Shown here in pieces: positions 2,078 to 48,745 of a stretch of DNA of 64,000 bases. Below the pieces are notes generated by a model, which worked only from the letters and a program-made list of their open reading frames with translations, ran no database searches and was not told where the DNA came from. The position numbers and the translations under genes are program-made. Numbering within the stretch: the first letter of the stretch is position 1; each line of letters begins with the position of its first letter. This DNA is from Leucoraja ocellata (lineage: Eukaryota): positions 1,984,001-2,048,000 of the forward strand of contig JAWMAR010000258.1 in the NCBI GenBank assembly GCA_036785375.1. Direction: 5' to 3'.

Positions 2078-2169
2078 CTGGAGTCCTTGATGGTTGAGAC
2101 ATTGGTGTTCAGGGCAGTCTTGATATTCCTCAAGTTCCATATGATCATGACAAACAAAACCGTGTTAAC
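2078..2169 (-). CDS. TIM-IgV adhesion GPCR, exon 14 (TM5-ICL3, VNTVLFVMIIWNLRNIKTALNTNVSTIKDSR); TM6-TM7 exons lie left of the window
   Basis: 92 nt, phase 0-2, ttgcAG and GTACGT; LN..VST.KD.R is an ADGRE-type ICL3. Confidence 0.93.
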
Positions 2170-3071: not shown

Positions 3072-3208
3072 NNNNNNNNNNNNNNNNNNNNNNNNNNNNN
3101 NNNNNNNNNNNNNNNNNNNNNNNNNNNNNNNNNNNNNNNNNNNNNNNNNNNNNNNNNNNNNNNNNNNNNNNNNNNNNNNNNNNNNNNNNNNNNNNNNNNN
3201 NNNNNNNN
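3072..3208. other. Assembly gap
   Basis: N run; the flanking exons (67 and 92 nt) join in frame, so no coding exon appears to be lost. Confidence 1.
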
Positions 3209-5006: not shown

Positions 5007-5073
5007 CAAAACCACGAAGGACACCGGACCCAACAAACTCCAGATAAAACCTTTCTCCAGATCCAGCCAACAC
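5007..5073 (-). CDS. TIM-IgV adhesion GPCR, exon 13 (ECL2-TM5, CWLDLEKGFIWSLLGPVSFVVL)
   Basis: 67 nt, phase 2-0, cttgcAG and GTAAGG; CWL...GFIWS..GPV motif. Missed by the ORF track. Confidence 0.95.
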
Positions 5074-6234: not shown

Positions 6235-6470
6235 CGGTCATGACTCCAGTAGCCGCAGGTGTTGACAAAGGCTGCCACGGTCACCACCAGCGCCGGGCAC
6301 AGGTAGGCGACAGTGTACATGTATCGCCGCTTCATCACGCGTGTGCGGGTGAAGTTCACCACCTTCAGGTTGAGCACCATCAGCCACAGGTGTACGGCCT
6401 CCAGCAGCATCCAGCTGAACGCCACCAGCAGCAGGTAGTGCAGACTACCCAGCACCAACGCACACTCTAT
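6235..6470 (-). CDS. TIM-IgV adhesion GPCR, exon 12 (TM3-TM4)
   Basis: 236 nt, phase 0-2. C...LHYLLLVAFSWMLLEAVHLWLMVLNLKVVNF; the NLKVVN ICL2 is ADGRE (EMR1/EMR3)-like. Confidence 0.96.
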
Positions 6471-6765: not shown

Positions 6766-6969
6766 CGATTGCGGTTTGATGAACATGGTGATGAGGAAGA
6801 GCAGCTCGGCCAGGAAGAGGTTGAGGCAGAGGTGCGCTCGGATCAGCGTGTAGAGGCCGCGGATGGCCTTGCACCAGAAGAAGGTTGCTAAGGACAACAA
6901 GAGGAAGAAGAGCGACACGGGCAGCACCAGCACAGTGATCCACCAGAGGGCGGTACTGTGCACCGGGTC
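6766..6969 (-). CDS. TIM-IgV adhesion GPCR, exon 11 (TM1-TM2)
   Basis: 204 nt, phase 0-0. ALWWITVLVLPVSLFFLLLSLATFFWCKAIR...HLCLNLFLAELLFL is adhesion-class TM1/TM2. Confidence 0.95.
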
Positions 6970-8689: not shown

Positions 8690-8842
8690 CATTTTGTACT
8701 GAGCCAGCAGCAGGGCAAAGCTGGACAGGGTGTTGTAGGTACAGGTGGCGTGAGTCTTGTTGCCGCTGCTCTCCTGCTGTGTTTCCCAGCCGTTGCCCAT
8801 CCAGGTGCCGCAGAGTCTCTTCCTCTTGCCATCATCGCACGG
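8690..8842 (-). CDS. TIM-IgV adhesion GPCR, exon 10 (GPS/Stachel exon)
   Basis: gcttccAG and GTGAGA, 153 nt, phase 0-0. PCDDGKRKRLCGTWMGNGWETQQESSGNKTHATCTYNTLSSFALLLAQYKM. Confidence 0.92.
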
Positions 8843-10088: not shown

Positions 10089-10279
10089 CTCCTCCTTCAC
10101 ACGGAAGGTGATGTTGAGGGTTGGTGTCAGACCCTGCCTCTGGCCGCCCACTTTGGTCACCGTCACCACCTTCGAATTGAACTTCACACTGGCGTTGTCT
10201 CTGCCTCCCTCCTGCACCAACGTTGGCTCCACGACGGTCTCCAGCTCTCTGTAACCCAGGAAGATGAGGAGAGCGTTCT
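10089..10279 (-). CDS. TIM-IgV adhesion GPCR, exon 9 (GAIN subdomain B)
   Basis: 191 nt, phase 1-0. ENALLIFLGYRELE...FNSKVVTV...LTPTLNITF contains the GAIN Y..L, NS.VV and L...NITF motifs. Alternative donor at 10080. Confidence 0.9.
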
Positions 10280-11382: not shown

Positions 11383-11502
11383 CGTGATCGTCCTGTCCCA
11401 GCAGCGAGAGGGAGCGGGCCACCAAGATGCTGTTGTAGGCGTTCAGGTAGATGATGGAACTCGCCGTCACTTTGTCCTTCTGTAGAGAAGCCACATCAAC
11501 CG
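11383..11502 (-). CDS. TIM-IgV adhesion GPCR, exon 8 (GAIN subdomain B, AVDVASLQKDKVTASSIIYLNAYNSILVARSLSLLGQDDH)
   Basis: cccgcAG acceptor, GT donor, 120 nt, phase 1-1, coding-like codon usage. Confidence 0.8.
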
Positions 11503-11931: not shown

Positions 11932-12109
11932 CGATGGTGGACGACGAATAGCGCGTCTTGTTGTTGCGGAGTAGGTTGAGCGCAGCGTCGGCGATGGCAA
12001 CCTCCATGGCCTGCAGCAGGTGTCCAAGAGCTGCCTGCTGCTGCTGCTTGTTCAGGTGGCCCCATTCCTCCGGGCTGGCCAACACCGACTGGGAGAAATT
12101 ACTGAGCGT
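11932..12109 (-). CDS. TIM-IgV adhesion GPCR, exon 7 (GAIN subdomain A)
   Basis: 178 nt, phase 0-1, GTAAGT donor. TLSNFSQSVLASPEEWGHLNKQQQQAALGHLLQAMEVAIA matches the W..L......A..LL..xE helical pattern of GAIN-A. Confidence 0.88.
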
Positions 12110-13850: not shown

Positions 13851-13946
13851 CTCCATTGCAATTCCAGCATTAGAACTGTTGCATGCTTTGTCCTTGAAGC
13901 TTTGAATCTTCTTTACAATGTCTGTGAGTGCAGCCTGCGTGTCCTT
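13851..13946 (-). CDS. TIM-IgV adhesion GPCR, exon 6 (stalk repeat B, KDTQAALTDIVKKIQSFKDKACNSSNAGIAME)
   Basis: NAGNAG acceptor (13946 or 13943), GTGAGC donor, phase 0-0. Confidence 0.75.
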
Positions 13947-14704: not shown

Positions 14705-14797
14705 CTTGTCCGGTCCTCCTGCGGCAGATTTGTTGCATGCTTTCTCCTTGAAGCTTCGGGTCTCGTTTACGATGTCTTGGATCACGGCTGCGTCTCT
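14705..14797 (-). CDS. TIM-IgV adhesion GPCR, exon 5 (stalk repeat A, RDAAVIQDIVNETRSFKEKACNKSAAGGPDK)
   Basis: catcAG and GTGAGG, 93 nt, phase 0-0; paralogous to exon 6. Confidence 0.75.
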
Positions 14798-16870: not shown

Positions 16871-16959
16871 CTGATCGGGAGCTTTGGTAGATTGTTCTGT
16901 GGTGGCATTAATGGTTCCTGTGGTGGCATTAATGGTTCCATAGCTGACAGTCGTTTCAT
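16871..16959 (-). CDS. TIM-IgV adhesion GPCR, exon 4: short Thr-rich mucin-like stalk (DETTVSYGTINATTGTINATTEQSTKAPDQ)
   Basis: ttctccAG and GTGAGA, 89 nt, phase 1-0; two NAT sequons. Confidence 0.82.
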
Positions 16960-17845: not shown

Positions 17846-18178
17846 CAGGAGGGGAGTCGGCTTTGAGGTTTCGGTTTTTTTTAAGGTCGTTCCCCAAGCC
17901 AGGTACAATGATGCGGCAACAGTATACTCCCTCATCCTTCTTCTCCAGATCCTTTATGGTCAGGGACACATCGCCGTTCTGTAAATCTCCACGCAGTTCA
18001 TATTTGGAGCTAAATTCAGGAGGGATCGTGCTTGTCGCCTCAAATTGGAAAAGCTTGTCGGGGCAGTCCAACAAAGAGCATTCCCCTCGACCCCAGCAGG
18101 TTGTGTACAATACACTACTGCTGTACGTGCAGGGGAGAGTGACTGTAGACCCCAGTACTCCCCTGATCTGTGACTCCT
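17846..18178 (-). CDS. TIM-IgV adhesion GPCR, exon 3: TIM/HAVCR-type IgV domain
   Basis: ttttacAG and GTGAGT, 333 nt, phase 1-1. Translation EESQIRGVLGSTVTLPCTY...TCWGRGECSLLDC...YELRGDLQNGDVSLTIKDLEKKDEGVYCCRIIVPGLGNDLK shows six Cys with the CWGRGxC and CCR..PG..ND hallmarks of TIM IgV. Confidence 0.93.
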
Positions 18179-19195
18179 CTGTAAAACAGAAGCGACAGAC
18201 ATTCCCTTCAGTTCAGTTAGAATCACAGAGTCATTACATTACATTGACTTCTCCAATTTCAGGTAGTCCTTGCTTTCTCCCTCCTTCCCCTCCCCTTCCC
18301 AGCTCTCCCACAGCCCACTGTCTCTGCCTCCTCCTTTCTTCTTCCTGCCCCCCACCAAATCAGTCTGAAGAAGGGTCTCGACCCAAAACGTCACCTATTC
18401 CTTCGCTCCACAGATGCTGCCTCACCCGCTGAGTTTCTCCAGCATTTTGTGTCTACATTACATTAAGTGGTTTTCACAGCAATCGAGGTTGTGGGGTGCC
18501 ATCTGCATTGTGTAGTTTTACTCAAGGGCAAGCTGGGTGGATGAGCAAGTCCTCTCCCAGCAAGAAAGAAAGAACACAATACACAATAGAAATTAAACAT
18601 AACACACAGAACATCCACCACAGTGGGACCAGCACTTCCTGCTGTGATGGAAGGCACAAACATTCAGTCAGTCAGTCTTCCTTATTCTGTGGACCCGTGG
18701 TCGGGGCCCTGAACCCTCCGCAGTCACCACTACGCATGGCCCAATGTACAGGCCCTCTCGCCGGGACGATGGAAACTCCGACGTTGGGACGGATCGGGAA
18801 CACCCCGCAGCTCGGAATTCCCGAATCGGCCGTATCCCACCGGAGACGGCGGCTTCGCGATGCCACATCCACAGGCCCAGCGGTCGGGGCACCTCTTCAG
18901 GTGATCCTTGGCGAAGGCCGCAGGCAGCTCCACGATGGTAAAGTCCGTGCCGAGATGGCTCAGGTATGATGTGAAGATAATTGAGATGTGTTTTTCATCA
19001 ATTTATCTAATGTACAGTAAACCCTTGTTATAATGAACCATGTTTGATTGTCTGCTATTGCCGCTTGTCCGCAATAACAGAGTAAGGGATTACAGAGTGT
19101 AGGAAGGAACTGCAGGCGCTGGTTTAAACCGAAGACAGACAAAAAAAGCTGGAGTAACTCAGTGGGACAGGCAGCATCTCTGGAGAGAAGGAATA

Positions 19196-19630: not shown

Positions 19631-22123
19631 AACTTGTGAAATTCAAGTTGGGTGAATCAAACTGGCAGGGGTGCTGAGGAAGAGGATTTCTTGGAATGTA
19701 TGCGGGATAGTTATCTAAACCAACATGTAGAGGAACCAACGAGAGAGCTGGCTATTTTAGACTGGGTATTGAGTAATGAGGAAGGGTTAGTCAGTAGTCT
19801 TGTTGTGCGTGGCCCCTTGGGCAAGAGTGACCATAATATGGTTGAGTTCTTCATTAGGATGGAGAGTGACATTGTTAATTCAGAAACAATGGTTTTGAAC
19901 TTAAAGAAAGGTAACTTTGAGGGTATGAGACGTGAATTGGCCAAGATTGACTGGCAATTAATTCTAAAAGGGTTGACGGTGGATATGCAATGGAAGGCAT
20001 TTAAAGACTGCATGGATGAACTACAAAAATTGTTCATCCCAGTTTGGCAAAAGAATAAATCAGGGAAGGTAGTGCATCCATGGATAACAAGGGAAATCAG
20101 GGATAGTATCAAAGCAAAGGATGATGCGTACAAACTAGCCAGAAAAAGCAGCATACTGGAGGACTGGGAGGAATTCAGAGACCAGCAGAGGAGGACGAAG
20201 GGCTTAATTAGGAAAGGAAAAATGGATTATGAAAGAAAACTGTCAGGGAACATAAAAACTGACTGCAAAAGTTTTTATAGATATGTGAAAAGAAAGAGAT
20301 TAGTTAAAACAAATGTAGGTCCCTTGCAGTCAGAAACAGGTGAGTTGATCATGGGGAACCAGGATATGGCGGACCAATTGAATAACTACTTTGGTTCTGT
20401 CTTCACTAAGGAAGACATAAATGATCTGTCGGAAATAGCAGGGGCCCGCGGGTCAAAGGAGGTGGAGGAATTGAGTGAAATCCAGGTTAGTCGGGAAGTG
20501 GTGTTGGGTAAATTGAATGGATTAAAGGCCGATAAATCCCCAGGGCCAGATAGGCTGCATCCCAGAGTACTTAAGGAAGTAGCTCCAGAAATAGTGGATG
20601 CATTAGTAATAATCTTTCAAAACTCTTTAGATTCTGGAGTAGTTCCAGAGGATTGGCGGGTAGCAAACGTAACCCCACTTTTTCAGAAGGGAGGGAGAGA
20701 GAAAACGGGGAATTACAGACCAGTTAGCCTAACATCGGTAGTGGGGAAACTGCTAGAGTCAGTTATTAAAGATGGGATAGCAGCACATTTGGAAAGTGGT
20801 GAAATCATTGGACAAAGTCAGCATGGATTTACGAAAGGTAAATCATGTCTGACGAATCTTATAGAATTTTTCGAGGATGTAACTAGTAGCGTGGATAGGG
20901 GAGAACCAGTGGATGTGGTGTATCTGGACTTCCAGAAGGCTTTCGACAAGGTCCCACATAAGAGATTAGTATACAAACTTAAAGCACATGGCATTGGGGG
21001 TTCAGTATTGATGTGGATAGAGAACTGGCTGGCAAACAGGAAGCAAAGAGTAGGAGTAAACGGGTCCTTTTCACAATGGCAGGCAGTGACTAGTGGGGTA
21101 CCGCAAGGCTCAGTACTGGGACCCCAGCTATTTACAATATATATTAATGATCTGGATGAGGTAATTGAAGGCAATATCTCCAAGTTTGCGGATGACACTA
21201 AGCTGGGGGACAGTGTTAGGTGTGAGGAGGATGTTAGGAGACTGCAAGGTGACTTGGATAGGCTAGGTGAGTGGGCAAATGTTTGGCAGATGCAGTTTAA
21301 TGTGGATAAATGTGAGGTTATCCATTTTGGTGGCAAAAACGGGAAAGCAGATTATTATCTAAACGGTGGCCGATTGGGAAAGGGGGAGATGCAGCGAGAC
21401 CTGGGTGTCATTGTACACCAGTCATTGAAGGTAGGCATGCAGGTGCAGCAGGCAGTAAAGAAAGCGAATGGCATGTTGGCTTTCATAGCAAGAGGATTTG
21501 AGTATAGGAGCAGGGAGGTTCTACTGCAGTTGTACAGGGTCTTGGTGAGACCACACCTGGAGTATTGCGTGCAGTTTTGGTCTCCAAATCTGAGGAAGGA
21601 CATTATTGCCATAGAGGGAGTGCAGAGAAGGTTCACCAGACTGATTCCTGGGATGTCAGGACTGTCTTATGAAGAAAGACTGGATAGACTTGGTTTATAC
21701 TCTCTAGAATTTAGGAGATTGAGAGGGGATCTTATAGAAACTTACAAAATTCTTAAGGGGTTGGACAGGCTAGATGCAGGAAGATTGTTCCCGATGTTGG
21801 GGAGGTCCAGGACAAGGGGTCACTGCTTAAGGATAAGGGGGAAATCCTTTAAAACCGAGATGAGGAGAACTTTTTTCACACAGAGAGTGGTGAATCTCTG
21901 GAACTCTCTGCCACAGAGGGTAGTTGAGGCCAGTTCGTTGGCTATATTTAAGAGGGAGTTAAATGTGGCCCTTGTGGCCAAGGGGATCAGAGGGTATGGA
22001 GAGAAGGCAGGTACGGGATACTGAGTTGGATGATCAGCCATGATCATATTAAATGGCGGTGCAGGCTCGAAGGGCCGAATGGCCTACTCCTGCACCTAAT
22101 TTCTATGTTTCTATGTTTCTATG
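19631..22123 (+). mobile_element. Young 5'-truncated CR1 (HER1-like) LINE with uninterrupted 790-aa ORF2 (partial APE + RT)
   Basis: ORF 19652-22024 with [29 protein letters not shown] and FADD motifs; (TTTCTATG)n tail. Confidence 0.97.
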
Positions 22124-22364: not shown

Positions 22365-22409
22365 CAGATTGAAGAATGGGTTCAATCCAAATGATCAAAT
22401 AGAAAATAG
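22365..22409 (-). CDS. TIM-IgV adhesion GPCR, exon 2 (signal peptide core, AIFYLIIWIEPILQS)
   Basis: ttttccAG acceptor, GTGAGT donor, 45 nt, phase 1-1, hydrophobic; unique sequence between repeats. Confidence 0.8.
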
Positions 22410-24169
22410 CTGGAAAAATAAATTGATAGTTTAGATCCAACATGAACAGTTCACAAATGATAGATTTAAAGTATTTTTATATAAAATTTAACAATAGAAG
22501 ATACCCAAGGGCGGCCCAATGGTTCTGCGGTAGAGTTGCTGCCTCACAGCGCCAGAGACCCGGGTTCGATCCTGACTATGGGTGCTGCCTGTACGCAGTT
22601 TGTACATTCTCCCCGTGACCACGTGTTTTCTCCAAGATCTTCGGTTTCCTCCCACAGTCCAAAGATGGACGGGTTTGTAGGATAATTGGCATGGTATAAA
22701 TGTAAAATTGTCCCCAGTGTGTGTATGGTATTGCTGATATACGGGGATCGCTGGTTGGTGTGGACTCGGTGGGCCAAAGATCCTTTTTCCACGCTCTATC
22801 TCTAAACTAAACTAACAGCCTAACCAACAAGATCTGGGCAAAGATTCAGTAATTGTAGACTTTGGAGGCACAGCACGGAAATAGGCCCTTCGGCCCACCG
22901 AGTCCGTGCCGACCAGCGATCCTCACATACTGGCTCTATCCGACATATACTAGGGACAATTATAATTTTTTACCAAAGCCAATTAAACTACAAACCCGCA
23001 CGTCTTTGGAGTGTGGGAGGAAACCGGAGCACCCGGGGAAAACCCACATGGTCACAGGGAGGAAGGTGCAAACTCCGTACAGACAGCACCCGTAGTCAGG
23101 ATGGAACCCGGGTCTCTGGCGCTGTGAGGCAGCAACTCTACCGCTGCGCCACCGTGCTGCTCATAGTTGGTGGGTTGGAGAGCAATAAGGTAGAGGTAGA
23201 TAGAGAGATACAGCACTGAAACAGGCCCTTCGGCACACTGAGTCCATGCTGACTGACCTAAAGGAGAGTCCTTTAATTCTGAGGCTGTGACCTCAAAGTA
23301 GCTCTTTCTTCCCAATAACCCTTTCTGGCTGAAGTCCTCCCTCCACCACCTCCAGTTTAAATTCCATTTGGAATATTTTGGAGGACCAAGACTTCTCGTC
23401 CTAGACTCTCCCACTAGTGGAAACATCATCTCCACATCACATTTCAATGAGGTCTCCCCTCACCCTTCGAAACTCCAGTGATCCTTCCAACGTTCTTTCC
23501 TATCCATCCTATAGAGGCGAGGATTCACTGTATTTTCTCACAGAGGCTATTTCGCAACCATTACCATGTTTACATCTTACAACACTTCAAAGATTGCATC
23601 AAAGGAGGAAATCCACACAGCGCTTATTGCAACATTATCGTGTGAACAAGACACTGAGCAAAATGAGCTGACCAGTGTCACGCTCGCTCGATGCAACACA
23701 AAGCCTATCCATCCGTCTTTGTAGAATGATTCTTATCATGAGAGAAAATATTATAGAGGAAATAATGCTCAAATTAGATTGGCGTACTGTGTAAGTTATT
23801 ACTGCAATGAAATTCATCAGAGTGCTACAACTCATAGAAACCTAGAAATTAGATGCAGGAGTAGGCCATTCGGCCCTTCGAGCCAGCACCGCCATACAAT
23901 ATCATCATGGCTGATCATCCAAATTCAGTACCCCGTTCCGGCTTTTACCCTCATACCCCTTGATTCTGTTAGCCCTAAGAGCTAAGTCTAACTCTCTCTT
24001 GAAAACATCCAGTGAATTGGCCTCCACTGACTTTTGTGCCAGAGAATTCCACATATTCACAACTCTCTGGGTGAAAAGGTTTCTCCTCATCTCAGTCCTA
24101 AATGGCCGACCTCTTATTCTTAAACTGTGTGGCCCCTGGTTCTGGAGTCCCTCAACATGGGGAACATTT

Positions 24170-25266: not shown

Positions 25267-26342
25267 AGAAACATAGAAATACAGAAATTAGGTGCAGGAG
25301 TAGGCCATTCGGCCCTTCGAGCCTGCACCGCCATTCAATATGATCATGGCTGATCATCCAACTCAGTATCCCGTACCTGCCTTCTCTCCATACCCACTGA
25401 TCCCCTTAGCCACAAGGGCCACATCTAACTCCCTCTTAAATATAGCCAATGAACTGGCCTCGACTACCCTCTGTGGCAGAGAATTCCAGAGATTCACCAC
25501 TCTCTGTGTGAAAAAAGTTCTTCTCATCTCGGTTTTAAAGGATTTCCCCCTTATCCTTAAGCTGTGACCCCTTGTCCTGGACTTCCCCAACATCGGGAAC
25601 AATCTTCCTGCATCTAGCCTGTCCAACCCTTTAAGAATTTTGTAAGTTTCTATAAGATCCCCTCTCAATCTCCTAAATTCTAGAGAGTATAAACCAAGTC
25701 TATCCAGTCTTTCTTCATAAGACAGTCCTGACATCCCAGGAATCAGTCTGGTGAACCGTCTCTGCACTCCCTCTATGGCAATAATGTCCTTCCTCAGATT
25801 TGGAGACCAAAACTGTACGCAATACTCCAGGTGTGGTCTCACCAAGACCCTGTACAACTGCAGTAGAACCTCCCTGCTCCTATACTCAAATCCTTTTGCA
25901 ATGAAAGCTAACATACCATTCGCTTTCTTTACTGCCTGCTGCACCTGCATGCCTACCTTCAATGACTGGTGTACCATGACACCCAGGTCTCGCTGCATCT
26001 CCCCCTTTCCCAATCGGCCACCATTTAGATAATAGTCTGCTTTCCCGTTTTTGCCACCAAAATGGATAACCTCACATTTATCCACATTATACTGCTTCTG
26101 CCAAACATTTGCCCACTCACCCAGCCTATCCAAGTCACCTTGTAGTCTCCTAGCATCCTCCTCATAGCTAACACTGCCCCCCAGCTTAGTGTCATCCGCA
26201 AACTTGGAGATATTGCCTTCAATTCCCTCATCCAGATCATTAATATATATTGTAAATAGCTGGAGTCCCAGCACTGAGCCTTGCGGTACCCCACTAGTTA
26301 CTGCCTGCCATTGTGAAAAGGACCCGTTTACTCCTACTCTTT
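25267..26342 (-). mobile_element. Young 5'-truncated CR1 copy inserted in a V-SINE
   Basis: Near-identical to the 3' part of the 19.6 kb copy; CTCGT on both sides; SINE halves at 25095-25266 and 26343-26460. Confidence 0.95.
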
Positions 26343-27531
26343 CTCGTGGATGAGAAAATTGGATTATATGGAATTAGTGTGAACGGGTGATCGATGGTCG
26401 GCGTGGACTCGGTGGGCCGAAGGGCCTGTTTCTGTGCTGTATCTCTAAACTAAACTAAACCAATTTTCCAGTTTTGATGAGAGATCTAATGATATATATT
26501 TAACATGCTGCACCAGAAACAGGCCCTTCGGCCCAACTTGGCCATGCTAACCGAGATGCCCTAACTATGTTTCAGAAAGAACTGCAGAGGCTGTAAAAAA
26601 TCGAAGGTAGACAAAAATGCAGGAGGAACTCAGCAGGTGAGGCAACACCTCTGCAGAAAAGGAATAGGTAACGTTTTGGGTCTGAAGCCTTCAAACTGTT
26701 GAGTAACTTAGTTTATCAGGCAGTAACTTCTACAAATATTTATAAGATTATAAGAATATAAATGAGACAGGAGCAGAATTAGGTCATTCGGCCCATCAAG
26801 TCTACTCCACCATTCAATCATGGTTGATCTATCTCTCCCTCCTCACCCCATTCTCCTGCCTTCTCCCCATAACCTCTGACACCCACACTAATCAAGACAT
26901 AGTCCTGCCTTCCCCTCCCTTCCCTCACCCACTGGCTTGGTACAATTATAAAATGTTCCCAGTGTGTGTAGGATAGTGTTAATGTACGGGGATCGCTGGT
27001 CGGCGCCGGCTCGGTGGGCCGAAAGTCCTCAAAAATATGGACTTCCCTCTGAGTGAAAAAGTTGCCTTGAAGTCCCTATTGGATCACTCCCCTCACCTTA
27101 ACCCGACACACTCTAGTTTTAGAATCCTATACCCTGGGAAAAAGAATGTTACCGTTCAATTTATTCATACCCCTCATGATCTTGTACACCTCAATAAGGT
27201 CACCACATCACCCTACACTCTAATGAACAAAGTCCCAGCCTATCCAACCTCTCCCTGTATCTCAAGCCCGCAAGTCCAGGTGCAGTAACACCCTGTTGAA
27301 TCTCGCTTGCACCCTTTCCAACTTAATGACATTTTTCCCGTAGCTGGGTGACCACAAATACACACAGCACTCTTAGAGTGGCCTCAGGGGCAATTTTTCT
27401 CTCAGAGGGTAATCTGTATCTGGAGTGAGCTGCTAGAGGCAGCTTAGATTAGTTTAATTTTGAGATACACCATGGAAATACACCCTTCAGCCCACAAAGT
27501 CCATGCCATCTAGCTATACTAACTCTGCACA

Positions 27532-44814: not shown

Positions 44815-45014
44815 NNNNNNNNNNNNNNNNNNNNNNNNNNNNNNNNNNNNNNNNNNNNNNNNNNNNNNNNNNNNNNNNNNNNNNNNNNNNNNNNNNNNNN
44901 NNNNNNNNNNNNNNNNNNNNNNNNNNNNNNNNNNNNNNNNNNNNNNNNNNNNNNNNNNNNNNNNNNNNNNNNNNNNNNNNNNNNNNNNNNNNNNNNNNNN
45001 NNNNNNNNNNNNNN
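44815..45014. other. Assembly gap
   Basis: 200-N run in the GPR139-like intron. Confidence 1.
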
Positions 45015-47578: not shown

Positions 47579-47834
47579 CGTCTCTTCATCCTTGTCGTCA
47601 TTCTAAATGTTCACGCCTCGCTGACCCTGGATCTGAAGAAGGGTTTCGGCCCGAAACGTTGCCTATTTCCTTCGCTCCATAGATGCTGCTGCACCTGCTG
47701 AGTTTCTCCAGCACTTTTGTGGACCGTGAATCAAAGTTTGACTGTAGAGTCAAAGTCAGCCAAAACCGTCTGGCCGGTCGCCCGGTGACTGAGATGAGAA
47801 TAGTTTCAGTAATTGTTTCAATTTGTTTTTCCAG

Positions 47835-48745
47835 TGAATTTAGTGGCGATAGCGATCCTGTCCCGGGGGAAGTGCGGCCTCTCCACCTGCACCACTCGCT
47901 ACCTGGTGGCCATGGCAGCGGCCGATCTGTTGACCATCGTTACCGAAGTCATACTGTGGCGAATCAGTTACTATTACTTTCGTGGGACGTTCCTGGACAT
48001 GACGCCTGTTTGTAGTGTAATTGCCGTACTGCTGAACGCAGCAGTACAATGCTCTGTCTGGTTCACCGTTGCATTCACCTTTGACCGCTTTGTTGCCATT
48101 TGCTGGCAGAAGTTGAAACCAAAATATTGCACCGCCAAAACAGCGGCCGCGGTTGTGGCAACAACTGGTGTCCTGCTCTGTCTGAAAAACATCCCCGTCT
48201 ACTTTACTCAAGAGCCGTCCAGGGTGGTCGACAGCGTTCCCTGGGACTGTTTCGAGAAGCCGAGTTACTTTACTAATCGCTGGTGGGTGGCATTTGACTG
48301 GATGGACACTATCCTGACACCTTTGCTCCCGTTCGCGTTCATTCTGTTGCTCAACGCTCTGACAGTCAGATACATTTTAGTGGCCAATCGCGTCCGTCAG
48401 GGATTAAAGGCCCCAAACAACGGGGAGGCCAGCAGAGACCCGGAAATGCAGAGCAGGAGGAAGTCCATGATCCTGCTCTTCACCATATCCGGCAGTTTCA
48501 TCCTCCTGTGGCTGCTGCACGTTGTTGAATTCCTTTACTACACAATTGCCAGGGCGGATCCCAACAATTACAGCGATCGGGAACACATATTCTCACAGTC
48601 AGGATACATGTTACGGACATTAAGTTGCTGCACGAATACCTTTATTTATGGAGTGACTCAGTCCAAGTTTAGAGAGCAATTCATGAATGCAGCAAAATAT
48701 CCATTCACGTCAATTGTTCATTTAATGAATAGACTAAGCAAATGA
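47835..48745 (+). CDS. GPR139-like class A GPCR, exon 2 (325 aa in total)
   Basis: tttttccAG acceptor. VNLVAIAILSRGKCGLS...YLVAMAAADLL, SVWFTVAFTFDRFVAIC, DPEMQSRRKSMILLF, LSCCTNTFIY; intact to TGA. Confidence 0.93.

Follow-up and report, generated by a model that had tools for sequence, protein, structure and literature searches.

The TIM-type IgV domain encoded in the Leucoraja ocellata window (the whole 64-kb stretch of DNA analysed here) very probably heads an adhesion GPCR and does not belong to a TIM gene, and its TIM pocket signature is real. Judging from exon structure, orthologous gene models, and trees, this architecture very probably arose when a TIM (HAVCR/TIMD4-type) IgV exon was shuffled, prior to the divergence of sharks and rays, in front of the GAIN-7TM region of a gene of ADGRE type.

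The IgV exon lies on the minus strand at 17846..18178 (333 nt, phase 1-1, intact), exactly the limits given in the first-pass annotation, with an acceptor (...TTTTACAG, graded good) before 18178 and a GTGAGT donor after 17846. Residues are numbered along the 110-aa translation of 18176..17847. The six cysteines are C16, C27, C33, C38, C86, and C87, and the open frame contains the FG loop CCRIIVPGLGND. The exon matches the Pfam V-set profile far better than chance would allow (E 1.7e-17), and in a PDB sequence search the best 15 of 73 matches were all TIM-1, -2, -3, or -4 (E 6.7e-25 to 3e-16), led by mouse TIM-1 (2or8, E 6.7e-25) and TIM-4 (3bi9, E 2.6e-23); the first non-TIM match had E 4.3e-10. 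An AlphaFold2 model of the domain (pLDDT 87.9, 62-row alignment) aligned with TIM-4:PtdSer (3bib) at TM 0.90 and with TIM-family folds at TM 0.83–0.90, and among the matches listed in ranks 1–18 of a structure search, 17 of 17 were TIM entries. Sequence and model together fit, in cysteine positions and fold, a six-cysteine TIM-type IgV domain. The six TIM cysteines and the VPGLGND loop claimed earlier were thus read in frame, with V-set, PDB, and model matches in agreement, and the superposition on TIM structures that had been proposed as a check bore out the assignment.

Within the 64-kb window there was no second TIM copy, and a homologue search with the IgV alone returned one of 333 candidates, a frog tandem-TIM protein. 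Four frog proteins (P0001, P0005, P0200, and P0208) carry several tandem TIM-type IgV domains (four in P0001, five stretches in P0005). Three of the four are labelled 'polymeric immunoglobulin receptor-like', and they are probably mis-annotated multi-TIM proteins.

We infer that thirteen minus-strand exons, joined at GT-AG sites, are spliced into one chain of 643 aa, which contains no stops and no frameshift and in which all phases match. From the N-terminus, this chain is predicted to comprise a signal peptide, the IgV, a short stalk, GAIN/GPS, and an ADGRE-like 7TM that continues past the edge of the window. Aligned over 623 columns, it shows 48% identity to the sawfish protein P0006; identity to the N-truncated Amblyraja model P0002 is 90% over 301 aa. 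The predicted signal-peptide exon (22365..22443; ATG at 22443, GTGAGT donor, phase 1) was matched by tblastn with the sawfish N-terminus (E 0.008) and joins in frame. A hydrophobic open reading frame at 18525-18671 was rejected for this role, as it has no donor and is repeat-like, and the exon at 22443..22365 fits. The stalk exon (16871..16959) encodes 30 Thr-rich residues with two N-glycosylation sequons; within it, a perfect 21-bp duplication (16897..16939) doubles a sequon. This Cys-free exon stands in for a two-Cys segment of the orthologues.

Next in the chain is a pre-GAIN exon in two tandem copies, at 14705..14797 (phase 0-0; tblastn with the sawfish stalk, E 0.02) and at 13851..13946 (tblastn E 0.004), the second of which has a weak acceptor and may be skipped. 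The orthologues have a single copy, which Heterodontus isoform X2 skips; segments skipped by Heterodontus isoforms have ends matching the exon limits in the window. GAIN sequence is encoded at 11932..12109 (subdomain A helices; 44% to sawfish P0006, E 2e-12), at 11383..11502 (phase 1-1; homology to sawfish and an in-frame join), and at 10089..10279 (subdomain B; 85% to Amblyraja P0002 over 48 aa, with the least certain acceptor position). The GPS exon at 8690..8842 (Pfam GPS E 3.6e-4, 21.4 bits) is followed by exons for TM1-TM2 (6766..6969; Pfam 7tm_2 E 7.3e-7), TM3-TM4 (6235..6470; Pfam 7tm_2 E 1.7e-10), ECL2 and the start of TM5 (5007..5073; 100% over 24 aa to P0002), and TM5-ICL3 (2078..2169; 84% to P0002). 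Three splice sites are weak: two acceptors, at 13946 and 10279, and one donor, at 11383.

Among named proteins, the closest is P0002 from the thorny skate Amblyraja radiata, which is 91% identical on the TM3-TM4 exon. This 413-aa NCBI model has no IgV; its first residues already lie within GAIN, which marks it as truncated, and it is likely an incomplete annotation of the same gene. We found no convincing match within the 64-kb window for TM6, TM7, or the tail (P0002 residues after about 302), which are presumably located beyond window position 1. Between the IgV and the first GAIN exon there is neither a TM-like segment (best 19-residue hydropathy 1.66) nor an AATAAA, which makes a separate single-pass TIM gene unlikely.

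The surrounding sequence is vertebrate DNA rich in SINE/LINE repeats, with runs of N at 3072..3208, in an intron of the receptor gene, and at 44815..45014. LINE reverse-transcriptase open reading frames, recognised by motifs, lie at 19640..22024 (plus strand) and 25363..26373 (minus strand), and we take both to be of CR1/L2 type. The former, a 794-aa frame free of stops, lies antisense within the intron that separates the signal exon from the IgV exon. A single-exon rhodopsin-family GPCR frame of 310 aa occupies 47813..48745 on the plus strand (Pfam 7tm_1 E 4.5e-24); presumably it resembles the GPR139/142-like genes expanded in cartilaginous fish.

The GAIN/GPS region directly precedes a secretin-type 7TM, with window exons matching 7tm_2 and GPS, the latter at 21.4 bits, just under the Pfam cut-off of 22.5. 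The catshark orthologue P0004 scores above the Pfam cut-offs for V-set, GAIN, GPS, and 7tm_2. Its model (pLDDT 79.4, pTM 0.56), in which relative domain orientation is not reliable, matches CD97, ADGRE1, latrophilin GAIN, and TIM-4 in separate parts, with CD97 and ADGRE1 ranked first. The closest PDB entry for the 7TM is ADGRE1 (E 6.8e-77), with ADGRL3 and ADGRE5 close behind. Pfam scans detected no EGF domain in the window model or in any of 11 IgV-bearing proteins, and no thrombospondin repeats. An ESM Atlas search with P0004, which covered all but small clusters, returned other adhesion GPCR clusters (best 0.90) and none with this architecture.

The window GPS lacks a canonical H-L-T/S autoproteolysis site. 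It reads T-L-S and has lost the second and fourth cysteines, changes that Amblyraja shares, and it keeps a tethered-agonist-like SSFALLL. Elsewhere, the site is S-L-S in Pristis, V-L-S in the carpet sharks Rhincodon and Chiloscyllium, and H-L-S in the models of eight other sharks; His occupies position -2 in 85 of 107 other hits, 18 of which did not match the pattern. GPS cleavage of the window receptor may therefore be reduced, to judge from these residues. The second and fourth cysteines are partners of one another, which suggests a tolerated paired loss. Cleavage at the non-canonical site is still possible, since GPR125 cleaves at S-L-S according to the excerpted text of PMC9539791.

Proteins with the same architecture were found in other elasmobranchs. 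A profile search gave 165 hits among 8000 candidates scored, and among the 120 of these that were listed, at least 11 proteins carried a V-set domain together with 7tm_2 or GPS; all were elasmobranch, from 10 species. V-set and 7tm_2 occurred together in at least eight species, namely Pristis pectinata (three IgV copies), Scyliorhinus canicula and Mustelus asterias (two each), S. torazame, Cetorhinus maximus, Carcharodon carcharias, Heterodontus francisci (two isoforms), and Pristiophorus japonicus, and V-set and GPS in truncated models from Heptranchias perlo and Rhincodon typus. Most are labelled 'ADGRE-like' and one 'uncharacterized'. No bony-vertebrate ADGRE with a V-set appeared among the matches listed, and two Callorhinchus rows are N-truncated and hence uninformative on V-set. 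Together with the in-frame chain of 13 exons, the orthologous models in 10 species support the reading that the IgV is part of an adhesion-GPCR-type receptor. For Amblyraja and for all nine of the IgV-bearing species that have contig data, the receptor has the same longest-contig value as other ADGRE-like paralogues, a match that suggests a shared chromosome. Two other ADGRE-like proteins, from axolotl and grass carp (P0175 and P0255), carry PF00530, which we take to be the SRCR scavenger domain, as another innate-recognition module on an ADGRE body.

Both halves of the receptor point to one origin. The GAIN-7TM tree comprised 55 rows, the window and 54 of 56 chosen proteins (two were dropped as too short), and was a quick IQ-TREE run with SH-aLRT only, midpoint rooting, and no outgroup. 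All nine IgV-bearing rows and two N-truncated models formed an 11-row clade (SH-aLRT 100), within which the window grouped with Amblyraja and Pristis (SH-aLRT 99) and the skate branch was long (0.61). As the tree had no outgroup, ADGRE as the nearest 7TM stands, and placement inside ADGRE does not follow. In a FastTree analysis of IgV domains (the window together with 171 six-Cys domains retained out of 186), all 16 receptor-borne domains fell in an exclusive clade (0.918) with the window beside Pristis (0.945). Their next relatives, with weak support (0.75), were unnamed stand-alone TIM-like proteins. Across 55 pairs, identity in the IgV rises with identity in GAIN (rho 0.88, 1/2000 permutations), a correlation driven in large part by the batoid-shark split. 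Since both trees group the window with sawfish in one exclusive clade, we interpret the fusion as one old exon-shuffling event. Most simply, an ADGRE-type gene would have captured a phase 1-1 TIM exon once, with the direction of events inferred without an outgroup. EGF exons are also phase 1-1.

The putative ligand pocket keeps most, but not all, of the residues that characterize TIM-1 and TIM-4. The FG loop VPGLGND (17886..17906, minus strand), identified by sequence, alignment to TIM-1/TIM-4, and domain census, ends in N96 and D97 (17891..17886, minus strand), which align with the ND of TIM-1/4 as the MILIBS Asn-Asp; L94 and G95 occupy the W/F positions. In the hTIM-1 numbering of PMC9611583 (excerpted text), anchored on the cysteines, Y38, R106, G111, N114, D115, and K117 are retained as Y18, R88, G93, N96, D97, and K99, and F55, W112, and F113 are replaced by L36, L94, and G95. 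The same excerpts cite alanine mutants at eight hTIM-1 positions, F113A included, as lowering Ebola-GP-mediated (PS-dependent) entry and list F113L without significant effect; these are second-hand viral-entry read-outs, not lipid binding. Six of the eight positions are identical in the window, F55 is conservatively replaced by L36, and F113 is lost, with G95 in its place.

Conservation of the Asn-Asp pair, on which the earlier proposal of metal and PtdSer binding depended, held up in most orthologues: ND is kept in 12 of 15 orthologous IgV domains (two of them from isoforms of a single gene) and in the last, membrane-proximal IgV of nine of 10 species, as well as in the window. It is lost from both Mustelus domains and the first S. 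canicula domain and is therefore dispensable in some lineages. In the Mustelus asterias protein (P0155), the FG loop of each IgV domain is shortened and lacks the Asp, so that nature provides a control with a dead pocket. Of the two residues before ND, which the first-pass annotation described as hydrophobic and membrane-inserting in TIM-1/-4 and TIM-3, only the Leu is hydrophobic in the window copy, the Phe position being Gly; two hydrophobic residues are present here in 123 of 155 other TIM domains. Shark FG motifs are mostly LFND, IFND, PFND, LLND, or PIND, and nine of the 15 orthologous domains, from most sharks, have two hydrophobic FG residues. Only the window and the three domains of Pristis have LGND; among 136 ND-bearing stand-alone TIM domains, none has Gly at the Phe position. 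This change makes PtdSer binding by the window copy uncertain, and with the effect of hTIM-1 F113A on entry (excerpts of PMC9611583) it makes the earlier expectation of weaker binding reasonable.

Other positions in and around the pocket also differ from TIMs. The window has Ile at the conserved Glu before the FG loop (Glu in 108 of 156 other domains), and none of the 16 receptor-borne domains has the conserved Pro that follows the third Cys in TIMs (104 of 156). In receptor-borne domains, the loops are less basic, with a median net charge of -1 versus +2 (window +1). The tip of CC' carries a hydrophobic pair, L35-L36 in the window and W-I in Pristis, which 35 of 155 other domains also have. 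In a TIM-3 simulation, the CC' and FG loops both enter the head-group region (bioRxiv 10.1101/2023.12.24.573254, as excerpted), and it is possible that the CC' hydrophobics compensate for the lost FG Phe. Overall, the residues suggest a metal site that is plausibly intact and membrane insertion that is probably weakened.

An RGD at 17985..17993 (minus strand; D strand/DE loop) had been suspected of being non-functional, and we agree. It is found at this position in none of the 15 orthologous domains and in one of 155 other TIM domains, and it is formed by residues common at those positions, so we regard it as incidental. A role as an integrin ligand was rejected on the same absence; the RGD of TIM-4 lies elsewhere, before the F strand.

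We put at about even the chance that the window IgV is the PtdSer/Ca2+-binding head of an elasmobranch adhesion GPCR that signals in the same molecule. Under this reading, the CC'-FG cleft would bind a metal ion via N96/D97 and dock the head group of PtdSer on an apoptotic cell, a vesicle, or an enveloped particle, with the hydrophobic loop tips (L94 on FG, L35-L36 on CC') touching the bilayer. The short stalk would relay a pull or conformational change to the GAIN domain, which would present the SSFALLL peptide to the 7TM for G-protein signalling; the receptor would be expressed in phagocytes. In the batoid branch (window skate and sawfish), where the FG Phe has become Gly and the GPS His is lost, lower affinity per domain would be expected, offset by the CC' hydrophobics or by IgV triplication in sawfish, and autoproteolysis would be reduced or absent.

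In favour of PtdSer recognition, the pocket residues Y18, R88, G93, N96, D97, and K99 are identical to those of hTIM-1 (numbering from the excerpts of PMC9611583), and BAI1 is an adhesion GPCR whose signalling depends on PS exposure, according to the abstract of PMC9723945. Against it count G95 (0 of 136), Ile for Glu, less basic loops, ND loss in some lineages, the long skate branch, and the loss of function of WFND mutants (excerpted text of PMC9720250). The skate copy is among the least canonical family members, and shark orthologues with LFND, IFND, or PFND are thus the better candidates for a PtdSer sensor. We consider PtdSer binding fairly probable for the shark forms, at or a shade under even chances for the window copy, and a role of the receptor in efferocytosis specifically rather doubtful. 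The full picture, in which sharks, rays, and skates would have a natural one-chain 'eat-me' receptor with a TIM PtdSer/Ca2+ pocket wired via GAIN to a G-protein 7TM and retuned in batoids (F-to-G pocket, His-less GPS, sawfish triplication), is offered tentatively.

The same fused receptor could instead have switched to a protein or glycan ligand or a cell-surface partner, with ND as a structural or metal site, and act as an adhesion or mechano-sensor rather than a PtdSer sensor, at least in batoids. TIM-2, or TIM-3 with galectin-9/CEACAM1, provide precedents for protein or glycan ligands, and CD97 binds CD55. Such a switch would fit the F-to-G change common to skate and sawfish, the ND-less Mustelus, the variable and less basic loops across the clade, and the missing Pro, but ND is kept in most species along with R88, G93, and K99 while adjacent residues vary, and most sharks retain both FG hydrophobics; we consider it possible but on the unlikely side. 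It is improbable that the skate copy is a relaxed or decaying family member of little function, with an intact frame and a degenerate pocket, GPS, and stalk. The long stem, the loss of the GPS His, two GPS cysteines, and the stalk cysteines, the duplicated exon with its weak acceptor, and the GPS score just under the cut-off would be expected under decay, but the 13 exons lack any stop or frameshift, Amblyraja has the same GPS changes at 90% identity over 301 aa, the GPS cysteine losses look like a tolerated pair, and all six IgV cysteines are kept. That the IgV exon is a separate upstream TIM gene (secreted or single-pass) and the database fusions annotation read-through is very improbable, because the IgV-less Amblyraja model and the automated origin of every orthologue model, which would allow it, are outweighed by the same fusion in at least 10 species with several isoform members per cluster, congruent IgV and GAIN-7TM trees, the lack of a TM exon or polyA signal after the IgV, an upstream signal exon matching fused orthologues, and the truncation of P0002 within its GAIN domain.

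If the PtdSer reading is correct, this adhesion GPCR would have a lipid ligand that is structurally defined and switchable, one protein doing what TIM-4 and a co-receptor do in mammals. For most adhesion GPCRs, either no ligand is known or it is unclear how the ligand is connected with activation. A natural receptor that binds its ligand entirely through a single module of well-determined structure, for which an on/off mutation is known (ND to AA) and PtdSer liposomes would be an inexpensive ligand, would let activation by ligand tethering, and the need for GPS cleavage, be tested directly. Natural variants could serve as controls (LFND with H-L-S, LGND with T/S-L-S, and the ND-less Mustelus). 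The receptor would also represent an exon-shuffling innovation of elasmobranch immunity that has gone undescribed behind the automatic label 'ADGRE3-like', and it could serve as a template when engulfment receptors are engineered. We found no description of a TIM-headed adhesion GPCR in the literature searched, which included shark, skate, and cartilaginous-fish topics, with subscription papers outside its scope. The main text of a vertebrate adhesion GPCR survey, whose supplements may list such sequences (PMC8584163), contains no occurrence of 'shark', 'cartilag', or 'TIM'; the searched portion of a 2026 review (PMC13197933) has none of 'shark', 'cartilaginous', or 'TIM-4', and the whale shark genome paper (PMC8455134) none of HAVCR or ADGRE.

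Both modules are known and the proteins are already in databases; a TIM-like head on an ADGRE-like body is neither a TIM family member nor a classical EGF-TM7. The TIM family (TIM-1/HAVCR1, TIM-3/HAVCR2, and TIM-4/TIMD4) shares with the window the six-Cys IgV, the CC'-FG cleft, the MILIBS Asn-Asp, and the R and K flanking the FG loop, but has W-F, L-F, or I/L-M before ND where the window has L-G, and a long mucin stalk, single TM, and short tail in place of a 30-aa Thr-rich exon followed by GAIN and 7TM. TIM-4 itself is considered to tether without having a signalling motif of its own (excerpted text of PMC9848438). The ADGRE/EGF-TM7 receptors (ADGRE1 and ADGRE5/CD97) offer the nearest 7TM structures and a similarly short GAIN without a hormone-binding domain. 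In the window family, however, one to three copies of the TIM IgV replace the EGF repeats, the GAIN-7TM sequences form a separate clade, and the batoid GPS is non-canonical. ADGRB1/BAI1 and ADGRG1/GPR56 are adhesion GPCRs reported to bind PtdSer (PMC13197933, as excerpted), but they belong to different subfamilies and do so through thrombospondin repeats or the GAIN region instead of a TIM pocket. BAI1 couples to ELMO/Dock180, and its expression in macrophages is disputed (title of PMC6509540); the tail of the window receptor presumably lies outside the window. Engineered TIM-4 chimeric engulfment receptors likewise place a TIM-4 ectodomain on a signalling module and depend on WFND (excerpts of PMC9720250), but these are synthetic, single-pass proteins with TLR/CD3z tails, compared with the natural 7TM fusion predicted in the window.
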